This document shows positions 5,296 to 19,183 of a stretch of DNA of 64,000 nt, in pieces. This DNA comes from Thiobacillaceae bacterium. Its GTDB lineage: Bacteria; Pseudomonadota; Gammaproteobacteria; Burkholderiales; Thiobacillaceae. The stretch covers positions 43,928-107,927 of the forward strand of contig JANLZE010000116.1 in the NCBI GenBank assembly GCA_031366105.1, given 5' to 3'. The translations under genes and the position numbers were made by a program. The stretch's first letter is position 1; each line of letters starts with the position of its first letter. The notes under the pieces were generated by a model. It ran no database searches. It had not been told where the DNA came from and was given only the letters and a program-made list of their open reading frames with translations.

Positions 5296-5601
5296 TCAAT
5301 CCCACATCACATTTTCGTTGTCGGCGTGAGCGGCCTCCAATAGTTGTATCAGCGGCAAAGCCCGTTGCGCCAGGCCTATAGAACGTTCTGCATCGTCGTT
5401 TCGTGCATTCTCCTTAGGCTGAATGTCTGCAGAGGTATCGCCCAAGCCTGCACGCAAGCGTGCCAGTGCATTTGCGAGATCGTCGGCCACAATAGCGCCG
5501 GGTACGTTGGGGGTATGGCCCATCAATGTAATGAGCTCCTTACCGACGTCACTCAAAAAAGTAAGGTCGGCATAAGATTTGGTGTGAAAGGTAATCGGCA
5601 T
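5296..5601 (-). CDS. DUF1840-family protein
   Basis: N-terminus MPITFHTKSYADLTFL..VG..LI.LMGH...VPGAI. AAGGA RBS before the ATG at 5601. Confidence 0.8.
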   Translation of the reverse strand: MPITFHTKSYADLTFLSDVGKELITLMGHTPNVPGAIVADDLANALARLRAGLGDTSADIQPKENARNDDAERSIGLAQRALPLIQLLEAAHADNENVMWD

Positions 5602-5630
5602 TGCTGTCCTTTGTAAGTTTAGTTCAGTGA

Positions 5631-6068
5631 TTATTGACCACGCCCCAGCTTGGCATCCAAACATTGTAAATACGCCAGCGGATCATAGCCGGCACCGCTT
5701 CGTTGCGACTGCCAGATCATTTCCGCTAGGCAGTCCATCACCTCGTGTTGCGCTTGCATTACCTCCCCAGTTTGCGCCAGCAGTTGTTGATAGCGTGCGC
5801 GCATACCTGCGGGTTGATCAATCGAAACTTGTTCGACAATCGATAGATGCATCGACAAATGCAAAAACGGATTTGTTTCACCCTGCGCCGGCGGATAGTC
5901 GCGTTCGAGATAGCGGTCTGGATCGTCGAGCATGGCGTGATATTCCGGATGCGCCAGAATTGCTTCAAGCGCGATCTGCTCGGCCCCCGCCAATGCCTGA
6001 CCCGCGCGGTATTTGCCCCACACGTCGAAGAAAAACTGGCGAACCTGCTCGCGACTAGGATTAAACAC
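5631..6068 (-). CDS. DUF1841-family protein
   Basis: GTG start MFNPSREQVRQFF, plus HPEYH and NPFLHLSMHLSI.EQ.SIDQP.G motifs. Confidence 0.85.
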   Translation of the reverse strand: MFNPSREQVRQFFFDVWGKYRAGQALAGAEQIALEAILAHPEYHAMLDDPDRYLERDYPPAQGETNPFLHLSMHLSIVEQVSIDQPAGMRARYQQLLAQTGEVMQAQHEVMDCLAEMIWQSQRSGAGYDPLAYLQCLDAKLGRGQ

Positions 6069-6961: not shown

Positions 6962-7671
6962 GGCGAGAACCTGCTATCGCCTGATCGGCTCAGCCGCTGC
7001 TCGGCGCGAGCCTTCATCCAATTGCGCGCGGCGATTAACAAACCGAATGTAATAAATGCACCCGGCGGAAAAATCGCCAGTAAAAATCCCTGATCGTGGG
7101 GCAGCACATGTAGCACCCCAGGCTTGGCGCTTTCGCCAAACACTAGCTCGATTCCAGCGAATAGCGTGCCTTCGCCAGCGAGTTCGCGGACCCCGCCCAA
7201 AATCAGCAATACGCCTGTCATCCTCAAGCCCATAACGAATGCATCAAGCATGGAATACCACGGATTTTTTGACACAAACGCCTCCGCACGCGCGAGCACG
7301 ATGCAATTGGTGGTGATGAGGGGAATAAAAATCCCGAGCGCGAGATAGAGCGGATGCACAAAAGCGTTCATCACCAGGTCAATCGCGGTAACCCATCCAG
7401 CAACGATCAGTACAAACACCGGAATGCGGATTTCAGTCGGCACGAAATTACGCACAGTCGAGACCGCAGCGCTTGAGGCCACCATCACGAACGTGGTCGC
7501 CAGCCCCAGCGAGAGGGCGTTCATTACGCTATTGCTGATGGCCAGCAAGGGGCACAAGCCGAGCCATTGCACCAGCCCGGCATTTTGTTTCCACCAGCTA
7601 TTGTTAAAAATTCTGTGTGACGATGTTGCGCTGATCATGCTGTCATCTTGATCATGCACCGACTCCATCAT
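6958..7671 (-). CDS. rsxE: Rnf/Rsx electron-transport complex subunit E (start 7671 or 7638)
   Basis: [22 protein letters not shown] and [15 protein letters not shown] motifs. Multi-TM. Upstream of nth as in rsx operons. Confidence 0.88.
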
Positions 7672-10298
7672 GCTGCGGCGCTCTCCAGTTTGGCTGACAC
7701 CCATGCTGCCACGGAGGCGAGCGCACTTGCGAGCTTCGCGGGTTCTGTGCCGCCTGCCATCGCGAGGTCCGCCTTGCCGCCGCCTTTGCCGCCGACTTGC
7801 AGCGCCACAAAATTTACGAGCTCACCGGCTTTGATGCGGCCAACCAAATCCGGTGTAACAGCGGCGATCAAACTAACTTTGCCGTTTATCGCAGTGCCCA
7901 GCACCAGCACGCAGGATTGGAGTTTGTCGCGCAACTTGTCGGCGGTCTCGCGCAGCGTTTTGGCATCGGCGCCTTCAAGCTGCGCCGCTAGCACCCGCGT
8001 ACCGGCGATTTCTATCGCTTGCTGCATTAACTCGCCCCCGCGACTTGATGCCAATTTGGCTTTTAGTTGGTTGAGCTCTTTTTCCAGGCTGCGGTTGGTT
8101 TCGGTTAACTGCGCCACGCGTGCTGCGGCATCGGCGGGCGCTGCGCGCACGAGTCCCGCGATGCTGGCGAGATTTTTTTCGGTCTCGCCCAGGTAGTCCA
8201 GCACGCCGGTGCCGGTGGTGGCCTCGATCCGCCGGATGCCCGCCGCCACGCCGGTTTCCAGCAGGATTTTGAACGCACCGATGTCGCCCGTGCGCGTCAC
8301 GTGGGTGCCGCCGCAAAGTTCGCGCGAATTACCGATATCCAGCACCCGCACTTCGTCGCCATACTTCTCGCCGAACAGCATCATCGCGCCGGTTTTTTGC
8401 GCGTCTTCGATGCCCATTACGCGCGCCTGCGTCGGGGTGTTGGCGAGGATTTCTGCGTTGACGCGCGCCTCGACCTCACGAAGCTGCGCGGCAGTCATCG
8501 GCACGGGCTGGACGAAATCAAAGCGCGTTTTCTCGGCATCCACCAGCGAGCCTTTTTGCTGCACGTGGCCCCCGAGTACGTCACGCAGCGCTTTGTGCAT
8601 CAGGTGGGTCACCGAGTGGTTGCGCATGGTGCGTGCGTGCGCGGCTTCGTCGACCTTGGCGGCGATCGCGTCACCTATCTGGATGACACCGGTTTTGACT
8701 ACGCCGTGATGACCAAACACCTGCGCCTGAAGTTTGAGCGTGTCTTCCACCGCAAACAGCCCGCCCGCCGCGTGCAATACGCCGCGATCACCGACCTGGC
8801 CGCCCGACTCGGCATAAAAAGGCGTGTGATCCAGCACCACCACGCCTAGCTCGCCCTCACTCAGCGCCTTGACACTCGCGCCGTCGCGGTAAAGCGCGAG
8901 CACGATGCCATCATGCGCCAGCGTGTCGTAGCCGTGAAAAGTCGTTGCCGCGCCGGTATATTCGAGCCCCGCGCCGAGCTTGAATTTGCCCCCCGCGCGC
9001 GCTTGATCCTTCTGCCTTTTCATCGCGGCGTCGAATGCGTCGGTATCGACTGCCACGTTCGCCTCACGGCAAATGTCGGCAGTCAGATCGAGCGGAAAGC
9101 CGTAGGTGTCGTGCAGCTTGAACGCCAGCTCACCGTCAAACACGCCATTCGTCGGTAGGGTTTTCAATGCGGCGTCCAGAATGCTCATGCCGTTTTCGAT
9201 GGTCTCGAAAAAGCGTTCTTCTTCCTGTTTTAGTGTGTCCATCACACGCGTTTGCGCCGCGACAAGTTCGGGATACGCGTCGCCCATCACCGCGACCAGA
9301 TCGGGCACCAGGCGATGAAAGAAAGCCACGCGAACATTGAGTTTGTAGCCATGCCGAATCGCCCGCCGAATGATGCGGCGCAGCACATAACCCCGCCCTT
9401 CGTTGCCGGGGATCACGCCGTCGACGATCAAAAAAGCGCACGCGCGGATGTGATCGGCGATGACTTTAAGCGAGTTGTTTTGTGTGTCGGAGGTTTTGGT
9501 TTCGCGCGCCGCAGCCAGAATCAACGCCTGAAATAAATCGATGTCGTAGTTGGATGACACGTGCTGCATCACCGCCGAAATCCGCTCCAGTCCCATGCCG
9601 GTGTCCACGCTTGGTTTGGGCAGAGGGTGCATCACCCCCGCAGCGTCACGATTAAACTGCATGAACACGTTATTCCAGATTTCGATATAGCGGTCGCCGT
9701 CCTCATCGGGCGAGCCGGGCGGACCGCCCGCAATCTCGGGGCCGTGATCGTAGAAAATTTCCGAACACGGCCCGCAGGGTCCGGTGTCGCCCATCGCCCA
9801 GAAATTATCGGAAGCGTACTTCGCGCCCTTGTTGTCACCGATGCGGACGATGCGTTCTTTCGGCACGCCGATGTCGCGGTTCCAGATGTCAAACGCCTCG
9901 TCATCCTCGGCGTATACCGTGACCCACAACTTATCCGCAGGCAATTGCAAGGTCTGAGTCAGAAATTCCCACGCGTACGCAATCGCTTCATGCTTGAAAT
10001 AATCGCCGAAACTAAAATTACCCAACATCTCGAAAAACGTGTGGTGGCGGGCGGTATAGCCGACATTTTCCAGGTCGTTGTGCTTGCCCCCCGCGCGCAC
10101 GCAGCGCTGCGACGACACCGCGCGGGTATAGGCGCGCTTATCCTGTCCGGTAAAAACGTCCTTGAACTGCACCATGCCCGCGTTGGTGAACAGCAGCGTC
10201 GGGTCGTTGCCGGGCACGAGCGGGCTCGATGGGACCACGGTATGCCCTTTGGAGGCGAAGAAATCGAGAAAACTCTGACGGATGGCGCTACTTTTCAT
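7668..10298 (-). CDS. alaS: Alanine--tRNA ligase
   Basis: [42 protein letters not shown], editing-domain ELCGGTHV and C-terminal GGKGGG. Confidence 0.98.
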
Positions 10299-10424
10299 GA
10301 TCGGGAAACACACTGAGAATCGCCGCATTTTAACCCGGATGGTGGTACTCATTGCTGGCCGGGGACGACTCTGAGGAAATCCCCTATCCGGCGTAATTTT
10401 GTTTGTCGCGCCCGACATCAACCA

Positions 10425-10611
10425 GCTGTGGAACTGTCCGGGGAAACGGGTCAAGTCCAGCTTCAACATGAGAGGCCGCGTGCAACACGGCCGGCGCGCT
10501 AGTGCACTATCGCGGGTGTCCCCACGCTCGGCAGTTACTCATACTAGGGATCCCAAAATTCCGCGACTTAAGGAGGGTGGATAGCGCGGCCAAATGGCCG
10601 CATTACTCATA
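10425..10611. other. Palindrome-rich non-coding segment upstream of alaS (possible IS-end remnant or structured RNA)
   Basis: Hairpins at 10474-10492 and 10586-10601, palindrome TAGTGCACTA at 10500-10509, and a strong SD AAGGAGG at 10570-10576 with no downstream gene. Confidence 0.35.
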
Positions 10612-10826: not shown

Positions 10827-11780
10827 TCACGATTTCAAAGATTGACGCAGAGCGCGGAGCATATGGCGGGGGTTTAATACCCCCAAGCTAAATGCGGGAC
10901 TCCTTATTAAATGCGTCAAAGCTTGGCTATAGGGCTTAAAGCCGTCGTTGGAGGCGGAATACATTAGACTTTCCCCGACGCGCTGCAACTCCTCACGAGT
11001 CAGCCGGACCTCCTGCGACGACAAGTTGAGCTGAGCCGCATTGCTCAGGGTTTTGTTCAAGGTTCTTAAAGCAAAGTAGTTATTTTTTGTCACATTACTA
11101 GGATGTGACAAATTACTTTCATGGATGCGAATTTTTACAAGCGCCTGGTCTACGAAGGCAAATTGCCCGAGGCGTGATAAGCGCAAAATAAACTCCCGGT
11201 CTTCCGATGCTCTAATCGATTCATCGAACAAACCCACTTTCAGGGCGGCCTCCCGCTTAAATATTAAAGAGCTAGGCGGAAAAAAAAGTCCGGGGAGCAA
11301 AACTTCAAAAAATTTTGCTCCGAGCCGATGCACCTTATTGCCCTGCTTGGCCTCCGACACGCGCAAAGCTTTGACGCGAGCAATGGGCGAGCTTTTCGAT
11401 TTTTTTTCACTATCAAAGTAAACGCCATCTGCAAATACCGCAATTAAGTCGGCATAAACGTGAACTGCCCCAGCCAGACGTGTTAAATGCTCGGCTAGCC
11501 AAATATCATCGGCATCCAATAACGCTATCCAGTTTCCGGTTGCGTTTCGAATGCCATGGTTGCGTGCCGCGGAAACCCCTTGATTAGCTTGCTTTAGTAA
11601 AGTTATATTAAGTTTGGTTTTCGCTTGCCAATGCTGGATGCGTTCAAAGGTGTCATCCGTGGAACCATCATCGATAATAATAATTTCGCGCGGTGCTAAA
11701 GTTTGTGCGACCACACTATCCAAAGCGGCTTCGATAAACCGGCTGGAGTTGTAAGCTGGCACAACGACACTAATGTCCAT
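10827..11780 (-). CDS. Family 2 glycosyltransferase (AT-rich)
   Basis: ISVVVPAYN, IDDGSTD, NQGVSAARNHGI, LLDADD and SED motifs. Visibly AT-richer than alaS. Confidence 0.92.
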   Translation of the reverse strand: MDISVVVPAYNSSRFIEAALDSVVAQTLAPREIIIIDDGSTDDTFERIQHWQAKTKLNITLLKQANQGVSAARNHGIRNATGNWIALLDADDIWLAEHLTRLAGAVHVYADLIAVFADGVYFDSEKKSKSSPIARVKALRVSEAKQGNKVHRLGAKFFEVLLPGLFFPPSSLIFKREAALKVGLFDESIRASEDREFILRLSRLGQFAFVDQALVKIRIHESNLSHPSNVTKNNYFALRTLNKTLSNAAQLNLSSQEVRLTREELQRVGESLMYSASNDGFKPYSQALTHLIRSPAFSLGVLNPRHMLRALRQSLKS

Positions 11781-12005
11781 TAGCGTTTGAACTGAGCTAG
11801 CACAGTACTTTTTATTTTCGCTAATAAATTTTTCACGTCGGCGCACATTCCATGTTTAATCAAAAAATTCTGCGAACCACTCTATCGCAGATACTACACT
11901 CGTCGCTATTAGAGGCAACTATAGGCCATTGGACCAATAACTATAGTCAACAAGTAATGTGGGCGCGATTAATAACGAGTAAGGTTGAGTAAGGCTGCCA
12001 GAAGA

Positions 12006-12440
12006 GGATAGGAAATTCAACGGGACGATAAAAAATTCAACCGCACAAATCAAATTAACTTCGCTCCACCTCGCCTAGTCAATCCGATTACATCGTCAAA
12101 ACTTGACTGACACCCCGCTCCCCTCAACCCACATGGCAAGAATTGACCACGTCAATGCCTAAAATCTTCACACGCTAAACTCTGCGCACAAGCCATCCAA
12201 GGTGAGCAAAAAATTGCTCGTCACCAAGCGTTGCGCTGATCGAATTCGAACTTAGGTACGGGCTGCGCCGATTCGCCGGCGTGATCCAGAGTTTTCCGCA
12301 CGGTACCGACATCGGTAATAAAAGCGATGATCCGCATCTGCGCCCGGCAAATCGAGCAGACCAGCGGTACCGTTTTATAGATGCGCGCCTGCAACATCGC
12401 CCACAGATAGTGTTAAGCGGCGCGGAGCGGTGGGGCGTCC
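12006..12440 (-). mobile_element. IS91-family/ISCR-like element remnant: transposase C-terminal fragment plus oriIS-like end
   Basis: Minus strand 12412-12221 translates HYLWAMLQARIYKTVPLVCSICRAQMRIIAFITDVGTVRKTLDHAGESAQPVPKFEFDQRNAW*, matching the ISCR transposase C-terminal pattern (LWA.L.ARIYE..PL.C..C...MRIIAFIT, FEFDQR..W). In-frame TAA just upstream. Terminus CCGTTGAATTTCCTATCC at 12023-12006 resembles oriIS (..TTGAA.TTCCTAT). Confidence 0.8.
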
Positions 12441-12515
12441 GCTTCTGTTAGAGCAACGGTCGCAACTCAACTACGAGGATTCTAATCCTACGTTGGCTTG
12501 TGATGGTGTTGAACT

Positions 12516-12559
12516 CTGAAAAACCCTCAATTTCCAGGTACACTCTAATATTCTTTAGA
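12516..12559 (+). promoter_or_regulatory. Putative sigma70 promoter with overlapping operator-like inverted repeat
   Basis: CTGAAA(12516)-17 nt-TACACT(12539). Inverted repeat TCTAA-N6-TTAGA at 12544-12559. GAAGGA RBS before the TTG start. Confidence 0.45.
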
Positions 12560-12572
12560 TTGAAGGATTATT

Positions 12573-13265
12573 TTGGCTAACACGAATCGCCAAACCAAAA
12601 ACCAGCTTTACGGCCAAGTAGCCCGAATCGGAAAAGCCATCGCCAGCCCCAAGCGCTTGGAGCTGATCGAAATTTTATGCCAGGGCGAAAAAACCGTAGA
12701 GCAACTGGCCAACGACGCCGAAATTTCAGTCAAGCTCGCCAGCGCGCATCTAAAGGAATTGCGTATCGCGCAAATGCTGGAAACGCGGCGCGACGGTAAG
12801 TATGTGTTTTATGGGTTGGCTTCCCACGCAGTAGGTGATTTTTGGGTGGCGCTGCGCGCGCTGGCGGAAGACCGGCTGGTCGAGTTGCAATTGGCGCTGT
12901 CGCAACTGGCAGCGCACGCGGACGAGCTTTCGCCGGTGCCGCACGACGAATTGCTGGCGCAAGCGTCGCGCGGCGAGGTGGTGGTGATCGATGTGCGTCC
13001 GCACACCGAGTATGCGAATGCGCATTTGCCGTACGCGATTTCACTGCCGCTTGCAGAACTGCGTCAGCGCATTATCGAATTGCCTATCAACCTGCCCATC
13101 GTCGCTTACTGTCGCGGACCGTTTTGCCTGTGGGGCAAGGAGGCAGTGAGTCTATTGCGCGAGCACGGTTTTAACGCAAGTCGGCTGCAAAGCGGCGTCA
13201 GCGAGTGGCGAGCGCAGGGGCGGCAGATAGAAAAACTGGATCAGGGAGAAAAAAATGTTCTTTAA
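12573..13265 (+). CDS. ArsR/SmtB-family regulator fused to a C-terminal rhodanese domain
   Basis: N-terminal wHTH (ASPKRLELIE.L, S.HLKELR...LETRRDG..V.Y). C-terminal rhodanese (VIDVRP..EY...H.P.A, AYCRGPFC). Confidence 0.9.
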   Translation: MANTNRQTKNQLYGQVARIGKAIASPKRLELIEILCQGEKTVEQLANDAEISVKLASAHLKELRIAQMLETRRDGKYVFYGLASHAVGDFWVALRALAEDRLVELQLALSQLAAHADELSPVPHDELLAQASRGEVVVIDVRPHTEYANAHLPYAISLPLAELRQRIIELPINLPIVAYCRGPFCLWGKEAVSLLREHGFNASRLQSGVSEWRAQGRQIEKLDQGEKNVL

Positions 13266-13995
13266 ACAAATCGCGAGTAAGGATGCGTCGCTGTCTTATC
13301 TGTTTGGTTGTGGTTCGTGCCATGTCGCTATCGTGGTGGACCCGGTGCTGGGCGACGAGGATAGTTTTATCGCGGAAGCGGCCAACCAGGATGTAAAAAT
13401 TACTCACGTGATCGATACCCATTTGCACGCCGACCATTATTCCGGCGGACGTGCGCTGGCAGCGCGCGCGGGCGCGGTTTACGCAATGCACGAAAGCAAT
13501 ACCGACCGATTCGACGCGCCATTCACCCCTTTGCACAACGGCCAGCAGATTGTGCTGGGCAATGTGGTGGTGGAGGTGTTGCATACGCCGGGCCATACGC
13601 TTGACTCAATCTGCCTACTGGTCACCGACAAGCGACGGGCGGAGGTGCCGTGGTTTGTAATTACCGGCGACACGCTGTTCGTCGGCGCGGTGGGGCGGCC
13701 CGATCTGGCGGGCAAAGAGATTGAAATGGCGGGGCAGTTGTACGACAGCCTGCATGGCAAGTTGCTCAGCCTGCCGGGCGAAGTTGAGATTTATCCGGGC
13801 CATCAGGCGGGCAGCGCATGTGGTGCGGGTATCTCGGGCAAGCCCGGCTCGACCATAGGCTTCGAAAAGCGCTGGAACCCAATGCTTGCAATGGATAGAG
13901 CAGGCTTTGTGCACGCCTTGACCGCAACGCTGATGCCCCCTCCAGCGGAGATGGCGCGCATTGTGGCTGCAAACCTGGGGCGTCCAGTTGGGTGA
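13255..13995 (+). CDS. MBL-fold metallohydrolase, persulfide-dioxygenase-like (Blh/CstB-type N-domain)
   Basis: DTHLHADH, HTPGHT, TGDTLFVG.VGRPDL and YPGH..GS.CG motifs. Confidence 0.85.
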   Translation: MFFKQIASKDASLSYLFGCGSCHVAIVVDPVLGDEDSFIAEAANQDVKITHVIDTHLHADHYSGGRALAARAGAVYAMHESNTDRFDAPFTPLHNGQQIVLGNVVVEVLHTPGHTLDSICLLVTDKRRAEVPWFVITGDTLFVGAVGRPDLAGKEIEMAGQLYDSLHGKLLSLPGEVEIYPGHQAGSACGAGISGKPGSTIGFEKRWNPMLAMDRAGFVHALTATLMPPPAEMARIVAANLGRPVG

Positions 13996-15271
13996 TCTAC
14001 AGCACGGCATTCGCGTCAATATCCGGCAATTTTCGCATCTGGTCGCGCAGGTATTTTTTGTGGGTTTGACGCTGGGGATGATGCGCACTGTGTTGCCGGC
14101 GCTAGCCGAATCCGAATTCGGCGTGCCGCGCGGCTCGTTCATGCTGCTCACCAGCTTTGTCGTGGCGTTTGGCGTGGTCAAGGGCACGCTAAATTTCGTC
14201 GCGGGCCGGCTCTCCGAACGCTTAGGCCGACGGCGGGTGCTGCTGCTGGGGTGGGTCTCCGCGCTGCCGATTCCATTCATGGTGTATTACGCGCCGTCGT
14301 GGGGGTGGATCGTCGCGGCTACGGTATTGCTCGGCGTGAATCAGGGCTTTACCTGGTCGATGACGCAAACCGCCAAGCTTGACCTTGCGCGCGGCGACCA
14401 GCGTGGCTTTGCTATCGGCATCAACGAATTTGCCGGTTACGTCGGCGTGGCCGTGGCGGGCATTGTCACCGCTTATCTTGCACAGCATCTGGGTGCGCGT
14501 CTGGGCTTACTGGTGTTTGGTTTGACGGCGATTGGCGCGGCGGGTGCAGCGACGTTGCTGTGGGTCAGGGAAACGCTGGCGTGGGCGCGCCTTGAAGCCG
14601 CACGCCACGGTAGTCTCACTGGGCCGGGCGCGCGCTACCCTCAAGGCGTATCCGCCCAGCCGTCCACTTGGGAAATGTTCACGCTGATGTCGTGGCGTGA
14701 TCGACGCATGGCCGCATTCAGCCAGGCCGGATTAGTCGAAAAATTCGTCGATGCGCTGATGTGGGTGATCTACCCTATATGGCTGTATCAACGCCATTTT
14801 TCCTTGCCCGAAATTGGATGGATCATCGGCAGCTACGGCATCGTTTGGGGCGTCTCGCAGTTCTTTACCGGGCGCTTGTCAGACCGCATCGGGCGTCTCA
14901 AACCCATCGTCTGGGGCATGCTGTTATGCGGTGTGGGCGTGGGGTTGATGCCGCTATTTGATACCGCTATTTGGCAGGCGGGATCTGCCATGTTGACGGG
15001 GTTTGGCATGGCCTTGCTTTACCCCAATTTGTCCGCAGCGGTGGCCGATATCGCGCACCCCGACTGGCGTGGCTCGGCCATTGGCATCTACCGCTTCTGG
15101 CGTGATCTCGGCTATGGCGTAGGCGCGTTAGTGCTGGGCATCTCTGCGGCGATGAGCGGCACGCTAGAATGGACTTTTTGGCTGGTGGCCGCCGCGATGA
15201 TTATTTCCGGACTCACCGTCGCGTGGCTTGCAGAGGAAACTTTGCCACGTTTGAACCCTGCACGAGGATAG
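13988..15271 (+). CDS. MFS transporter (probable TTG start at 13988)
   Basis: About 12 TM segments with two MFS motif-A copies (GRLSERLGRR, GRLSDRIGR). Overlaps the upstream stop. Confidence 0.9.
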   Translation: MGDLQHGIRVNIRQFSHLVAQVFFVGLTLGMMRTVLPALAESEFGVPRGSFMLLTSFVVAFGVVKGTLNFVAGRLSERLGRRRVLLLGWVSALPIPFMVYYAPSWGWIVAATVLLGVNQGFTWSMTQTAKLDLARGDQRGFAIGINEFAGYVGVAVAGIVTAYLAQHLGARLGLLVFGLTAIGAAGAATLLWVRETLAWARLEAARHGSLTGPGARYPQGVSAQPSTWEMFTLMSWRDRRMAAFSQAGLVEKFVDALMWVIYPIWLYQRHFSLPEIGWIIGSYGIVWGVSQFFTGRLSDRIGRLKPIVWGMLLCGVGVGLMPLFDTAIWQAGSAMLTGFGMALLYPNLSAAVADIAHPDWRGSAIGIYRFWRDLGYGVGALVLGISAAMSGTLEWTFWLVAAAMIISGLTVAWLAEETLPRLNPARG

Positions 15272-15278
15272 ACGTTAG

Positions 15279-15818
15279 ATGCAGCACGACACGGTTATCG
15301 CCGCAACCCGCCTATGGCTCGAAAAAGCCGTCATCGGTTTGAATCTATGCCCGTTCGCCAAAGCGGTCTATCTGAAAGACCAGGTGCGTTTCGTTGTGAG
15401 CGCCGCGCCGCATCTGGACGGCCTGCTGGAAGACCTGGACCGTGAGCTTGATTTCTTGGCCGCGGCAAGCCCGGAAGAAGTCGAAACCACATTGTTGATC
15501 CACCCCACCTTGTTACCAGACTTTAGCGACTTCAATGATTTTATGCAGTTGGCCGAAGCCGCAGTTGATGAGCATGATCTGGCGGGGGTGATCCAAATTG
15601 CGAGTTTTCATCCCAAGTTTCAATTCGCCGATACTGAATCTGAGGACATCAGCAATTACACTAACCGTGCGCCGTATCCTGTCTTGCATCTGCTTCGAGA
15701 GGTGAGCATTAGCAAGGCGGTAGCAACATTTCCCGACACGGAAATCATTTACCAGCACAATATTATTACGTTACAAGGTTTAGGGATTGCAGGTTGGAAT
15801 GCGTTGTGGCGCACTTAG
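15279..15818 (+). CDS. DUF1415-family protein
   Basis: WLEKAVIGLNLCPFAK, ETTLLIHP, QIASFHP.FQF and NYTNRAPYP.LHLLRE motifs. Confidence 0.85.
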   Translation: MQHDTVIAATRLWLEKAVIGLNLCPFAKAVYLKDQVRFVVSAAPHLDGLLEDLDRELDFLAAASPEEVETTLLIHPTLLPDFSDFNDFMQLAEAAVDEHDLAGVIQIASFHPKFQFADTESEDISNYTNRAPYPVLHLLREVSISKAVATFPDTEIIYQHNIITLQGLGIAGWNALWRT

Positions 15819-15888
15819 TGGTATTAAGTGTACGAAGTTCTAATCCTGAGGCTGTCGAAACCTGGCCTTTTTTTACTTGGAGATCGCA

Positions 15889-16638
15889 TTGATTTTTAAA
15901 CAACTGTTCGAACCTATTTCCAGCACTTACACGTATCTAATTGGTTGCGAGGAAACCGGGCAAGCGCTATTGATTGACCCGGTGTTGCCCAACTGGGAAC
16001 GCGACTTGGCCGAAGTGAATGCGCTCGGTATGAAGCTCGCATTCACTGTGGAAACGCATATTCATGCGGATCACCTTACGTCAGCCAAAAAGCTTCAGGA
16101 AATCACCGGTAGCCAAATCGCTGGACCAGCATTGGATCAGTTGCCCTGTACTAACGTGGGCGTGGTGGAAGGCACACCTTTCAAAATGGGTTCAGTCGAG
16201 TTAACGCCTCTGCATACGCCGGGCCATACTGACAATCATTTCGCCTATTTTCACCAAGGCCGTATCTACAGCGGCGATGCGTTATTGATTGACGCGTGTG
16301 GTCGAACCGACTTTCAGAATGGCGATGCCGCTGCGCTTTATCACTCGGTCCGCGGCAAGCTGTTCGCGTATGCGGATGACACACTGGTGTATCCCGCCCA
16401 TGACTACGAAAAACGCCGCATTACCACCATAGGCCAAGAAAAATCCCGTAATCCGCGCTTAGGGGGAGATCGCACTTTGGAGGAGTTTGTAAAACTAATG
16501 AACGAACTGAAACTCGCGTATCCCAAATTTATCGACTACGCGGTGCCTGGCAACCGCGCATGTGGGGTTTGTCCTCCGGATGTGCCGGGGCACTTGCAGG
16601 AATATTGTGCGCAGATTGCGGAAAGCCGCCAGGGCTAA
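15889..16638 (+). CDS. ETHE1-type persulfide dioxygenase
   Basis: MIFKQLFEP.SSTYTYL, ETHIHADH, GDALLI..CGRTDFQ, YPAHDY and C-terminal AVPGN..CG. GGAGA RBS before the TTG at 15889. Confidence 0.88.
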   Translation: MIFKQLFEPISSTYTYLIGCEETGQALLIDPVLPNWERDLAEVNALGMKLAFTVETHIHADHLTSAKKLQEITGSQIAGPALDQLPCTNVGVVEGTPFKMGSVELTPLHTPGHTDNHFAYFHQGRIYSGDALLIDACGRTDFQNGDAAALYHSVRGKLFAYADDTLVYPAHDYEKRRITTIGQEKSRNPRLGGDRTLEEFVKLMNELKLAYPKFIDYAVPGNRACGVCPPDVPGHLQEYCAQIAESRQG

Positions 16639-16768: not shown

Positions 16769-17347
16769 ATGACTACCCTTATTGCAGGTCGATTCAGTCA
16801 ACAAACTCAAGCCGAAACCGCCTCGGCCGAATTATTGCGCTCTGGGTTTTCTCCGAGAGACATGACCTTGTTCTATGTGAACCCACAAGGCCAACATGAT
16901 CTATATCCGGTCGGTGGCGATGTGGACGAGTCTGAGGGTACCCACGGGGCCAGTAGTGGCGCAATGCAAGGCGCAGCTGGCGGAGTGGGCATGGGCGCAC
17001 TCGTAGGTGCAGCAACGATACCTGTGTTTGGGCCGGTAGGGCCGTTGTTAGGTGCCGCCGTGGGTGCTTACACCGGGTCGTTGGTGGGGGCTTTGAATAA
17101 AATGAAAAAATCTGAGGACCACTCTGACGGCTCAAATCGGGAAGAGGATATGAATCCTCCCAACGAGCCTATCGCCCGCAAAGCGGGAGTGTTATTGGCG
17201 GTAGCCGTCGCAAGCCCTGAGCAACGCGAAAATGCGATTCAAATTTTGCGAGTGTCCGCGCTAGAAATAGAGGAAGCAGAGGGCACGATGAACAATGGCG
17301 AATGGACTGATTTCAATCCATCAAAGCCGATAAAAATTGCGGAGTAG
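16769..17347 (+). CDS. Glycine-zipper membrane protein, function unknown
   Basis: GAxxGAxxG repeats (GAAGGVGMGALVGAA, GAAVGAYTGSLVG) flanked by soluble domains. Confidence 0.7.
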   Translation: MTTLIAGRFSQQTQAETASAELLRSGFSPRDMTLFYVNPQGQHDLYPVGGDVDESEGTHGASSGAMQGAAGGVGMGALVGAATIPVFGPVGPLLGAAVGAYTGSLVGALNKMKKSEDHSDGSNREEDMNPPNEPIARKAGVLLAVAVASPEQRENAIQILRVSALEIEEAEGTMNNGEWTDFNPSKPIKIAE

Positions 17348-17440: not shown

Positions 17441-19183
17441 TCAAGCAACCTTACCCGGATAATCTGCGATCCCGGGGTTTTTGTTTCCCACGCCAACGAT
17501 AGTCGGCGTGTTCAATTTGACATTTTTGATGACTTTTTTGTCACGTAAATAAGCCGCAACCACATCCCAGACTGGTTCCCCTTGCACCCCCTCAGCAACC
17601 GGTGCCCAGCCAGCAACCTTGTAAGTTTTTTTCGCTTCAATCTGCTTCCCTTTAAGCGTCATATTGGAAATACGTTTGCCAATTTTTTGGGTCGCGTTCA
17701 TGGTGTACTGTATGCCGCCTACACGCACCATGTCGCCCCCCTGCTGGTAATACGGGTCTTCATTAAAGAGATTGTCAGCGACATCTTCCATAATGGTTTT
17801 GATGGTTTCACCGGTCATATTGGTGAGGGTGGTTTGGGGGTAAGTAATCGCAGTCTGGTCCATCAGACGCTCCATCGTAATCGCATCGCCGGGTAATAGC
17901 GTGGTGCCCCAGCGGAAGCCTGGCGAAAACGCGGCATCTGCGCCTTTAACAGCCATCAGTGCATCGACAATGAGTTGATCCCATGTGCCATTGAAGTTGC
18001 CGCGGCGATAGAGGAAATCATCGGTCACAGCAAGTTTCTCGCTAAGTTTTTTCTCGAAAGGCGCACGCACACTATTGATGTGCTGGGTCATCTTGGCGTC
18101 AGCGGGCAGCAGGTTGGAAAATACCGGCAACAGACGGTATTTATAACTTTGGACCTTGCCTCCCCGAACGTCAAAATCCATCACGCCAAGAAACTTACTA
18201 TTCGACCCGGCATTAGTGACTAGCGTGATGCCTTTAGCATTCTTGACTTCTACCGGCTGCGGTACGCCATCATGGGTATGGCCGCCAAAGATGGCATCGA
18301 TGCCGGTAACGCGGCTGGCCATTTTCAGATCAACGTCCATACCGTTGTGCGAAAGCAGAATAACGACCTTCGCGCCTTTTGCGCGCGCCTCGTCCACCCA
18401 CTTTTGCATGCTATCTTCGCGAATACCAAAGTTCCAGTCCGGCACCATATGCCGCGGATTGGCAATGGGTGTATAGGGGAAAGCCTGACCCAGAATCGCA
18501 ACGGGTACCCCGTTCATTTCTTTCATCACATAAGGCTTAAATACCTGATCGCCGAAATCGCTGGTGACAATGTTTTGTGCAACAAAATCAACCCCGGCCT
18601 TCTGTAAATCACCGTTGATAATTTCTGTCATGCGCTTGGCGCCAAACTGGGCTTCCCAGTGCGAGGTCATCACGTTAACGCCGAGCAGGATATCGGCATC
18701 GACCATATCCTGAGCGTTGGTCCACAAGGATGTAGCCGATCCTTGCCATGTGTCACCCCCATCAAGCAACAAGGCCCCAGGACGTTGGGCGCGTATCTTG
18801 TCTACCAATGTCTTCAAATGAGCAAAACCACCGACTTTGCCATACACCTTAGCTGCTTCTGTGAAATCTAGGTAAGTGAATGCGTGCGCCTCCGGGCTCC
18901 CCGGTTGAATCCCGTATTGCTTAAGTAAATAAGGGCCGACTAAATGCGGGGCTTTTCCTAAAGATCGTCCCAAGCCGATATTGACATTGGGTTCGCGAAA
19001 CCAGATGGGCAATAACTGCGCATGACAATCGGTAAAGTGCATGAAAGAGACGTTGCCATGACGCGGCACGTCATAAAAATTGGCGGGGGCCTTACCCATG
19101 AGTGCGGCTTTGCTGTCCAAGGTCATCCCTGACGCGCTGGCAATGGCGAGCATCTGAAGAAATTCACGACGATTCATGTGCAT
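17441..19183 (-). CDS. soxB: Thiosulfohydrolase SoxB
   Basis: Tat signal NRREFLQML, HFTDCHAQL, LLDGGDTWQG, GGHTHD and PGFRWG motifs. Confidence 0.97.
   Translation of the reverse strand: MHMNRREFLQMLAIASASGMTLDSKAALMGKAPANFYDVPRHGNVSFMHFTDCHAQLLPIWFREPNVNIGLGRSLGKAPHLVGPYLLKQYGIQPGSPEAHAFTYLDFTEAAKVYGKVGGFAHLKTLVDKIRAQRPGALLLDGGDTWQGSATSLWTNAQDMVDADILLGVNVMTSHWEAQFGAKRMTEIINGDLQKAGVDFVAQNIVTSDFGDQVFKPYVMKEMNGVPVAILGQAFPYTPIANPRHMVPDWNFGIREDSMQKWVDEARAKGAKVVILLSHNGMDVDLKMASRVTGIDAIFGGHTHDGVPQPVEVKNAKGITLVTNAGSNSKFLGVMDFDVRGGKVQSYKYRLLPVFSNLLPADAKMTQHINSVRAPFEKKLSEKLAVTDDFLYRRGNFNGTWDQLIVDALMAVKGADAAFSPGFRWGTTLLPGDAITMERLMDQTAITYPQTTLTNMTGETIKTIMEDVADNLFNEDPYYQQGGDMVRVGGIQYTMNATQKIGKRISNMTLKGKQIEAKKTYKVAGWAPVAEGVQGEPVWDVVAAYLRDKKVIKNVKLNTPTIVGVGNKNPGIADYPGKVA

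Follow-up and report, generated by a model that had tools for sequence, protein, structure and literature searches.

A three-gene cassette under a predicted ArsR-family repressor with a fused rhodanese domain, found in a 64-kb stretch of DNA from a Thiobacillaceae bacterium (contig JANLZE010000116.1; hereafter, the window), is best read as a variant, not previously described, of the BigR/SqrR/CstR-type persulfide-sensor systems. The cassette consists of the regulator gene, a gene for a metallo-beta-lactamase-fold protein (MBL) that resembles the persulfide dioxygenase (PDO) CstB, and a gene for a transporter of the major facilitator superfamily (MFS). An earlier reading of the same DNA (the original prediction) had joined these genes with a DUF1415 gene and an ETHE1-type PDO gene in a single operon for sensing and disposing of persulfides. 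What it observed is confirmed, and its interpretation is borne out in part: the conserved core is the three genes, and the proposed five-gene operon is this cassette plus two unrelated resident genes.

The regulator comprises an ArsR winged helix-turn-helix (HTH) domain (approximately residues 14 to 100), a helical linker, and a rhodanese domain (approximately residues 125 to 220). Pfam assigns HTH_5 (7.5e-9, 35.8 bits, cut-off 22) and Rhodanese (4e-14) to these parts, and the NCBIfam model HTH_metalloreg (64.7 bits against a cut-off of 55) places the protein in the ArsR/SmtB winged-helix group. As the original prediction noted, the rhodanese domain bears a cysteine loop, CRGPFC; it occupies residues 180 to 185. 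In the alignment, Cys180 of IVAYC180RGPFC falls at the catalytic cysteine both of the CstB-like protein 3tp9 (VYCRTGG) and of the CoA-persulfide reductase 8a56, and BH2092 (3nhv) shares the CxGPxC form of the loop. The HTH part contributes a third cysteine, C36. Alignment A1 shows none of the classical ArsR metal sites: ELCVCDL is replaced by GEKTVEQL, and neither Cys nor His occurs in helix alpha-5; the alpha-3 CXC, alpha-5 His/Cys/Asp/Glu, and alpha-5 Cys3 signatures of metal and arsenite sensors are likewise absent from the regulator.

Cysteine conservation was assessed in an independent family sample, obtained from a HMMER scan of 1.84 billion representatives, in which the regulator family forms about 300 clusters at 50% identity (E <= 1e-30). 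Among 118 full-length representatives, which are 35-50% identical to the query and share at most 50% identity with one another, 110 (93%) retain C180, 113 (96%) R181, 111 (94%) G182, and 105 (89%) C185. C36 is present in only 17 of the 118 (14%), with Ala or Ser usual at that position. This rules out C36 as a family-wide partner cysteine; it could still have a role within the window regulator's own clade. The proposal that sensing takes place on the regulator's own rhodanese cysteine would fit this pattern, in which the loop cysteines are conserved throughout the family and the HTH cysteine is poorly kept. Cysteine conservation among the 80 loci surveyed below is circular, because those loci were retrieved by means of the peptide patterns E[IL]LCQGEK and AYCRGPFC.

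The family is widely distributed. Among the 599 pattern matches listed from a one-genome-per-species collection, at least 586 stretches encode a relative of the regulator, and the closest genome among the matches listed is a Nitrosomonadales/Thiobacillus-like metagenome-assembled genome whose regulator is 94% identical. In addition, 76 plasmid records from many phyla carry a family member. Every database record of the family bears only the generic name "metalloregulator ArsR/SmtB family transcription factor".

To define the conserved unit, neighbors within 4.5 kb of the regulator were counted at 80 species loci, taken from a one-genome-per-species scan with the regulator alignment. An MFS transporter was found at 48 loci, a CstB-type MBL at 47, a DsrE-family protein at 40, a separate rhodanese at 12, and TauE/SafE at 9, and at least one of these five is present at 72 of the 80; the DsrE and TauE neighbors were confirmed by Pfam. 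An ETHE1-type PDO occurs at one locus. DUF1415 also occurs at one, where it is not adjacent to the regulator. The five-gene set is therefore not recurrent, and the regulator, MBL, and MFS genes do recur together, with the cassette operon running in the regulator's direction at some loci and divergently at others. Annotated plasmids from Hydrogenophaga, Azotobacter, Rhodococcus jostii RHA1, and Deinococcus also carry the trio, and the Rhodococcus RHA1 homologue of the MBL carries two rhodanese domains, as in CstB. Several points of the original prediction stand. The neighbors (CstB-type PDO, DsrE, rhodanese, and TauE) tie the regulator family to the handling of sulfane sulfur, MFS and TauE alternate as the membrane partner, which agrees with an MFS in place of a TauE/YeeE exporter, and no SQR is present in the operon.

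A palindromic repeat, TCTAA-TATTCT-TTAGA, lies upstream of the regulator gene and is the sole TCYAA-N6-TTRGA match in the window. By itself, this match is not significant, given that 0.15 matches are expected and that at least one was found in 13 of 100 shuffles. We count the operator as real because it is conserved at the loci of relatives, and not because of its statistics in the window. Between positions -500 and +20 relative to the regulator start, the motif occurs at 63 of 87 loci (63 matches in 43.6 kb), compared with 2 matches in 1.175 Mb elsewhere in the same loci, which corresponds to a local enrichment of approximately 850-fold. The repeat noticed in the original prediction is thus a feature of the whole family. 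The longer family palindrome is approximately AACAWTCYAAY-N4-RTTRGAWTGTT and spans 12540-12563 in the window. Where the operon is divergent, the motif adjoins its leading gene. Relatives whose promoter can be recognized have the motif beginning at the -10 element or just past it; for example, the promoter TTGAAA-N16-CATAAT of loci L082 to L087 ends 1 nt before the motif. In the window, a glycosyltransferase gene and the relic of a transposase have taken the place of the DNA upstream. An inverted-repeat search of 12400-12620 with a seed of 6 gave no match; it missed the operator because the arms are only 5 nt long.

A wider operator regulon in the same genome was considered and rejected: strict matches number 8 in 3.2 Mb, roughly the chance expectation, and the only well-placed copies are the one in the window and one upstream of another ArsR gene, which encodes a stand-alone BigR-like protein. 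The genome has a second rhodanese-linked ArsR locus (C49:137396-142866, L126), in which the gene for a 107-aa BigR-like ArsR protein (75 bits, cut-off 155) precedes those for a resistance-nodulation-division (RND) adaptor, a permease of the same RND type, and a rhodanese of 160 aa. Some 95 nt before its ArsR start is TCCAA-N6-TTGGA, the same type of motif as the cassette operator. Because this motif type is common to both, cross-talk between the two regulators is possible.

The best solved relatives of the cassette's MBL protein are Staphylococcus aureus CstB (3r2u; 3.8e-41, over residues 1-237) and 3tp9 (3.9e-38). The protein is a predicted PDO of CstB type (type III) with the MBL fold, and its THLHADH, HTPGH, GD, and GH ligands, together with C189-G190, are invariant in 47 orthologues. 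It has no fused C-terminal rhodanese: Lactamase_B is the only domain in its 246 aa, and the MFS gene begins at its stop codon. In CstB, the Cys201-Gly202 pair belongs to a loop specific to that enzyme; it first becomes persulfidated, and S-sulfonation at the iron site follows (PMC12934615, a 2026 preprint). Thiosulfate is released only through persulfidated Cys408 of the enzyme's own rhodanese, the C408A mutant lacks activity, and R413 is required for electrostatic steering (PMC12934615). The MFS protein has 12 transmembrane segments (Pfam MFS_1, 1.1e-47) and is probably an exporter. Its substrate could not be assigned from relatives: a comparison with the PDB found no solved relative, and the best NCBIfam matches, to drug-efflux-type MFS models, are weak and all far below their cut-offs.

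We propose, with a probability of about 0.62, that the three genes form a cassette responsive to reactive sulfur and that its repressor senses through its own rhodanese loop. An ArsR-rhodanese dimer would bind TCTAA-N6-TTAGA at its own promoter and repress the genes for the regulator, the CstB-type PDO, and the MFS transporter; we infer repression at the palindrome because the position of the operator is conserved. When sulfane sulfur in the cytoplasm rises (as persulfides, polysulfides, and possibly thiosulfate), Cys180 would take up a sulfur atom, and Cys185, five residues on, could close a disulfide or trisulfide with it. The linker helix would relay this change to the winged helix, so releasing the repressor from the DNA. 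Using Fe(II), O2, and its Cys189-Gly190 loop, the MBL protein would then oxidize the sulfur of persulfides, presumably as CstB does, and the MFS transporter might export the oxyanion product, either sulfite or thiosulfate.

Several observations weigh against this proposal. Turnover by CstB requires the enzyme's own rhodanese cysteine, and the window MBL has none; its product and its partner are candidates only. The regulator's loop lacks the usual Arg/Thr at +5/+6, and sulfurtransferase activity is a prediction only. The original prediction had the operator-like repeat overlapping a promoter, and this overlap is unconfirmed in the window, where a sigma-70 scan found no plus-strand sigma-70-like promoter at the operator. 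The 80 surveyed loci were fetched with the two patterns given above, so a single clade was sampled. Finally, some family members adjoin arsenic- or selenium-related genes.

The missing rhodanese of the MBL protein raises an alternative, in which regulator and enzyme are the two parts of a split CstB. The regulator's rhodanese would act in trans for the rhodanese-less PDO, persulfidated Cys180 would resolve the S-sulfonate on Cys189 to thiosulfate, and the repressor, as a trigger enzyme, would read enzyme flux and not free persulfide. CstB is inactive without its rhodanese C408 (PMC12934615), and the window MBL keeps the Cys-Gly loop while having no rhodanese. The regulator and MBL genes share 11 nt, the rhodanese of the regulator is similar to the C-terminal one of 3tp9, and at 35 of 47 short-MBL loci it is the only rhodanese within 4.5 kb. 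However, the regulator keeps this domain in Rhodococcus RHA1, where the MBL has two of its own, and also at loci that have no MBL (MFS-only, DsrE-only, and TauE loci). Moreover, a separate rhodanese has been added at some loci, and the loop residue at +5 is Cys, not the Arg that CstB needs for steering (R413). We consider this arrangement unlikely. It also seems improbable that ArsR-rhodanese proteins as a whole are a large, unrecognized class of reactive-sulfur sensors with the C-R-G-P-x-C loop as the switch and that, in this betaproteobacterial branch, they additionally supply the rhodanese half of a split CstB, as a trigger enzyme set by catalytic flux. A different possibility, to which we give little credence, is that the cassette detoxifies selenide, perselenide, or arsenic-sulfur species and that the rhodanese cysteine pair binds Se or As(III). 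The metalloregulator label that NCBI gives to all members points this way, as do weak NCBIfam matches of the regulator to selenoprotein-type rhodaneses and MnmH. On plasmid pBPS33-1 of Hydrogenophaga sp. BPS33 (L122), a cassette of regulator, MBL, MFS, and rhodanese genes lies between an "arsenic resistance protein" gene, accompanied by several thioredoxin/redoxin genes, and selenoneine genes (SenB, EgtB-like). An S-adenosylmethionine (SAM) methyltransferase gene ends the Azotobacter copy, and a radical-SAM/DUF3641 gene neighbors a distant family member. A role in handling metalloids or selenium may hold for parts of the family. It agrees poorly with the most frequent partners, which are of sulfur type (DsrE at 40, TauE at 9, and CstB-type PDO at 47 of 80 loci). 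The window cassette itself sits in a sox-rich region of a sulfur oxidizer, and its regulator is without an ArsR metal or As site.

The version given in the original prediction, in which all five genes form one persulfide-disposal operon with DUF1415 as a new component and two PDOs in series, accounts for several features of the locus. All five genes are co-directional, a gap of only 7 nt precedes DUF1415, no convincing terminator lies inside the block, and the order is kept in relatives whose downstream flanks differ (sox genes in one, a MoxR/BatA cluster in others). However, only close relatives, with regulators 83-94% identical, have this order. In other Thiobacillaceae (loci L115 and L117), alaS and DUF1415 are direct divergent neighbors with no module between them. 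In the metagenomic relative L113, a relic at 5459-5950, between alaS and DUF1415, joins regulator residues 1-81 to MFS residues 359-434. Lost in the deletion there were the rhodanese domain, the MBL, and the greater part of the MFS protein, and the downstream DUF1415 and ETHE1-type PDO genes have outlasted it intact. Because L113 carries this scar, the cassette is dispensable in nature. Of 61 genomes of the order, 25 have DUF1415, in a single copy, and in the 24 other genomes with the gene, it has no PDO, MFS, regulator, or other sulfur neighbor, nor any conserved neighbor at all. The GC content at third codon positions (GC3) also separates the module genes (0.65-0.70) from DUF1415 and the ETHE1-type PDO gene (0.56-0.59). 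The neighborhood survey and synteny thus rule out the five genes as a conserved architecture, and a single five-gene pathway is very doubtful. DUF1415 is an ancestral divergent neighbor of alaS and not an extra pathway component, and the ETHE1-type PDO gene is lineage-specific. The simplest history would be insertion, in this genus, of the three-gene module between alaS and DUF1415, upstream of the resident DUF1415 gene. DUF1415 and the ETHE1-type PDO gene may be read through from the cassette promoter without being conserved parts of the system; the 7-nt gap makes read-through into DUF1415 plausible and does not make DUF1415 a component of the pathway.

All five co-directional genes carry the domains that the original prediction had assigned to them (open reading frames, Pfam, and NCBIfam; Table 1), and the first four do overlap or lie 7 bp apart. 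Gene junctions were read directly from the window sequence. The MFS start given in Table 1 yields a protein of 427 aa, close to the 425 aa of relatives. The start in the list of open reading frames, TTG 13961, would lengthen the overlap with the MBL gene to 35 nt. For the ETHE1-type PDO gene, the same list starts at 15877, and alignment places the ATG of relatives at TTG 15889. Membership of both downstream proteins in their families is clear. The DUF1415 protein matches PF07209 over model positions 2-170 of 171 (4e-67, 225.7 bits, cut-off 26), and the ETHE1-type PDO matches, over nearly its full length, 8zbd (7.6e-87), Myxococcus PDO 4ysb (2.4e-66), and human ETHE1 4chl (4.1e-54).

Table 1. 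Features of the window between alaS and soxB, with the two flanking genes
Feature	Positions	Strand	Remarks
alaS	7668-10469	-	
Family-2 glycosyltransferase gene	10827-11846	-	Low GC; GC3 0.48
Frame resembling the C-terminal end of an IS91-type transposase (by eye)	12221-12412	-	63 codons
Operator core TCTAA-N6-TTAGA	12544-12559		Motif kept across relatives' loci
ArsR HTH_5-rhodanese regulator gene	12573-13265	+	TTG start, AAGGA 6 nt upstream; 230 aa
CstB-type MBL (Lactamase_B) gene	13255-13995	+	246 aa; 11-nt overlap with regulator gene
MFS_1 transporter gene	13988-15271	+	TTG start; 8-nt overlap with MBL gene, including its stop codon
DUF1415 gene (PF07209)	15279-15818	+	7-nt gap after MFS gene
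CTGTCGTA motif (CTGTCGAA in the window)	15853-15860		About 30 nt upstream of ETHE1-type PDO start
ETHE1-type (type I) PDO gene	15889-16638	+	TTG start; 249 aa; 70-nt gap from DUF1415
Gly-rich protein gene	16769-17347		192 aa
soxB	17441-19183	-	

The spacer between DUF1415 and the ETHE1-type PDO gene was inspected for regulatory signals. A candidate terminator at 15848-15869 was rejected, because its hairpin does not surpass shuffled sequences in stability (z = 0.58) and is not conserved. The motif CTGTCGTA is found at its position upstream of the ETHE1-type PDO start in all five aligned relatives (alignment A3), within a spacer that is otherwise unconserved, and it may be part of the PDO gene's promoter or of a site for a regulator.

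Compared with loci L082 and L087, where alaS starts about 145 bp from the regulator, the window has approximately 2.1 kb of extra DNA, which holds the glycosyltransferase gene and the frame resembling a transposase. The Gly-rich protein encoded between the ETHE1-type PDO gene and soxB matches a Gly-zipper model only weakly, at a score under the cut-off (E 2.3e-4); its gene is kept in L081, the 94%-identical relative, and other genes stand in its place in L082 and L085. Elsewhere in the same genome (C119:31132-31797) is a third PDO-like MBL gene, whose product shares 36% identity with the ETHE1-type PDO and 33% with the CstB-type MBL, which brings the PDO-like proteins of this genome to at least three. 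In the regulator family, a distant member (41% identity; L119, 2676-5684) lies near radical-SAM/DUF3641, purine nucleoside phosphorylase-family, and carboxymuconolactone decarboxylase-family genes, with no sulfur genes. Because this member adjoins non-sulfur genes, the family is evidently heterogeneous in its targets.

The function of DUF1415 could not be derived from its fold. The AlphaFold model is confident (pLDDT 91.8), is of alpha/beta type, and has no significant solved match, the best being AglA 9ub3 (E 8e-3, TM 0.54/0.43). Invariant residues include C24-P-F-A, H111-P112, N126, N129-R130, and H137, and these may form a metal or active site. The gene is kept as a divergent neighbor of alaS in Thiobacillaceae. 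Papers naming DUF1415 contain no more than a single mention each.

Among characterized regulators, BigR, SqrR, YgaV, and HlyU (cluster 4 of the ArsR superfamily sequence-similarity network; PMC10054925) are similar to the window regulator in being ArsR winged-helix repressors with a palindromic operator at their own promoter and with control over genes for a PDO, a sulfurtransferase, and an exporter of sulfur anions. The best specific NCBIfam matches of the window HTH part are TsoR and BigR, both weak; the BigR equivalog model NF040642 gives 44.5 bits against a cut-off of 155. Unlike BigR and SqrR, the window regulator is 230 aa long with a fused rhodanese domain, and it lacks their cysteine pair: its alpha-5 (DFWVALRALAEDRL) has no Cys, and C36 is three residues away from the BigR-type position in a by-eye alignment with the stand-alone BigR-like ArsR protein of the same genome. 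In the Xylella and Agrobacterium bigR-blh operon, the gene for an ArsR repressor shares a transcript with those for a type III PDO-like MBL and membrane proteins, which makes it similar to the cassette. There, however, the sulfurtransferase domain is fused to the Blh enzyme and not to the repressor, and the Blh model reaches 59 bits against a cut-off of 625. The cst operon of S. aureus (CstR; CstA, CstB, SQR, and TauE) resembles the predicted system in its thiol-based repressor, CstB-type Fe(II) PDO, and anion exporter. It differs in that CstR is of CsoR type whereas the window repressor is of ArsR type; in addition, the window PDO is without the two rhodanese domains of CstB, an MFS transporter stands in for TauE, and the operon contains neither SQR nor CstA. 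Among solved structures, the window HTH part is closest to a mycobacterial "possible ArsR-family" protein (2kko/3gw2; 1.1e-14), which has Ala where the window regulator has C36. Rv0324 of Mycobacterium tuberculosis is another mycobacterial regulator to be compared; a rhodanese domain presumably forms its C-terminal part. It belongs to the ArsR family and has a reported role in bedaquiline tolerance, and the text consulted describes no link to sulfur (PMC9480834). A literature search found no publication on ArsR-rhodanese fusion regulators, in agreement with the original view that the architecture is uncharacterized. The sequence-similarity network of the ArsR superfamily by Giedroc and co-workers excluded proteins longer than 150 aa (PMC10054925).

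The finding corrects the model of the operon, in that DUF1415 and the ETHE1-type PDO gene are local neighbors and not conserved parts, and DUF1415 should not be annotated as a sulfur gene from this locus alone. The characterized persulfide-sensor types are CstR, SqrR/BigR, and FisR, each of which has been defined in few model organisms. The ArsR-rhodanese family is large and widespread, yet it is labeled only "metalloregulator", and the main published survey left out proteins of this length. If the rhodanese loop is indeed the sensor, thiosulfate as well as persulfides could react with it, which would widen the known range of bacterial sensing. With its operator defined, two cysteines as candidate sensors, and a regulon of just three genes, the cassette makes this idea directly testable, for example in Cupriavidus necator or Rhodococcus jostii RHA1.

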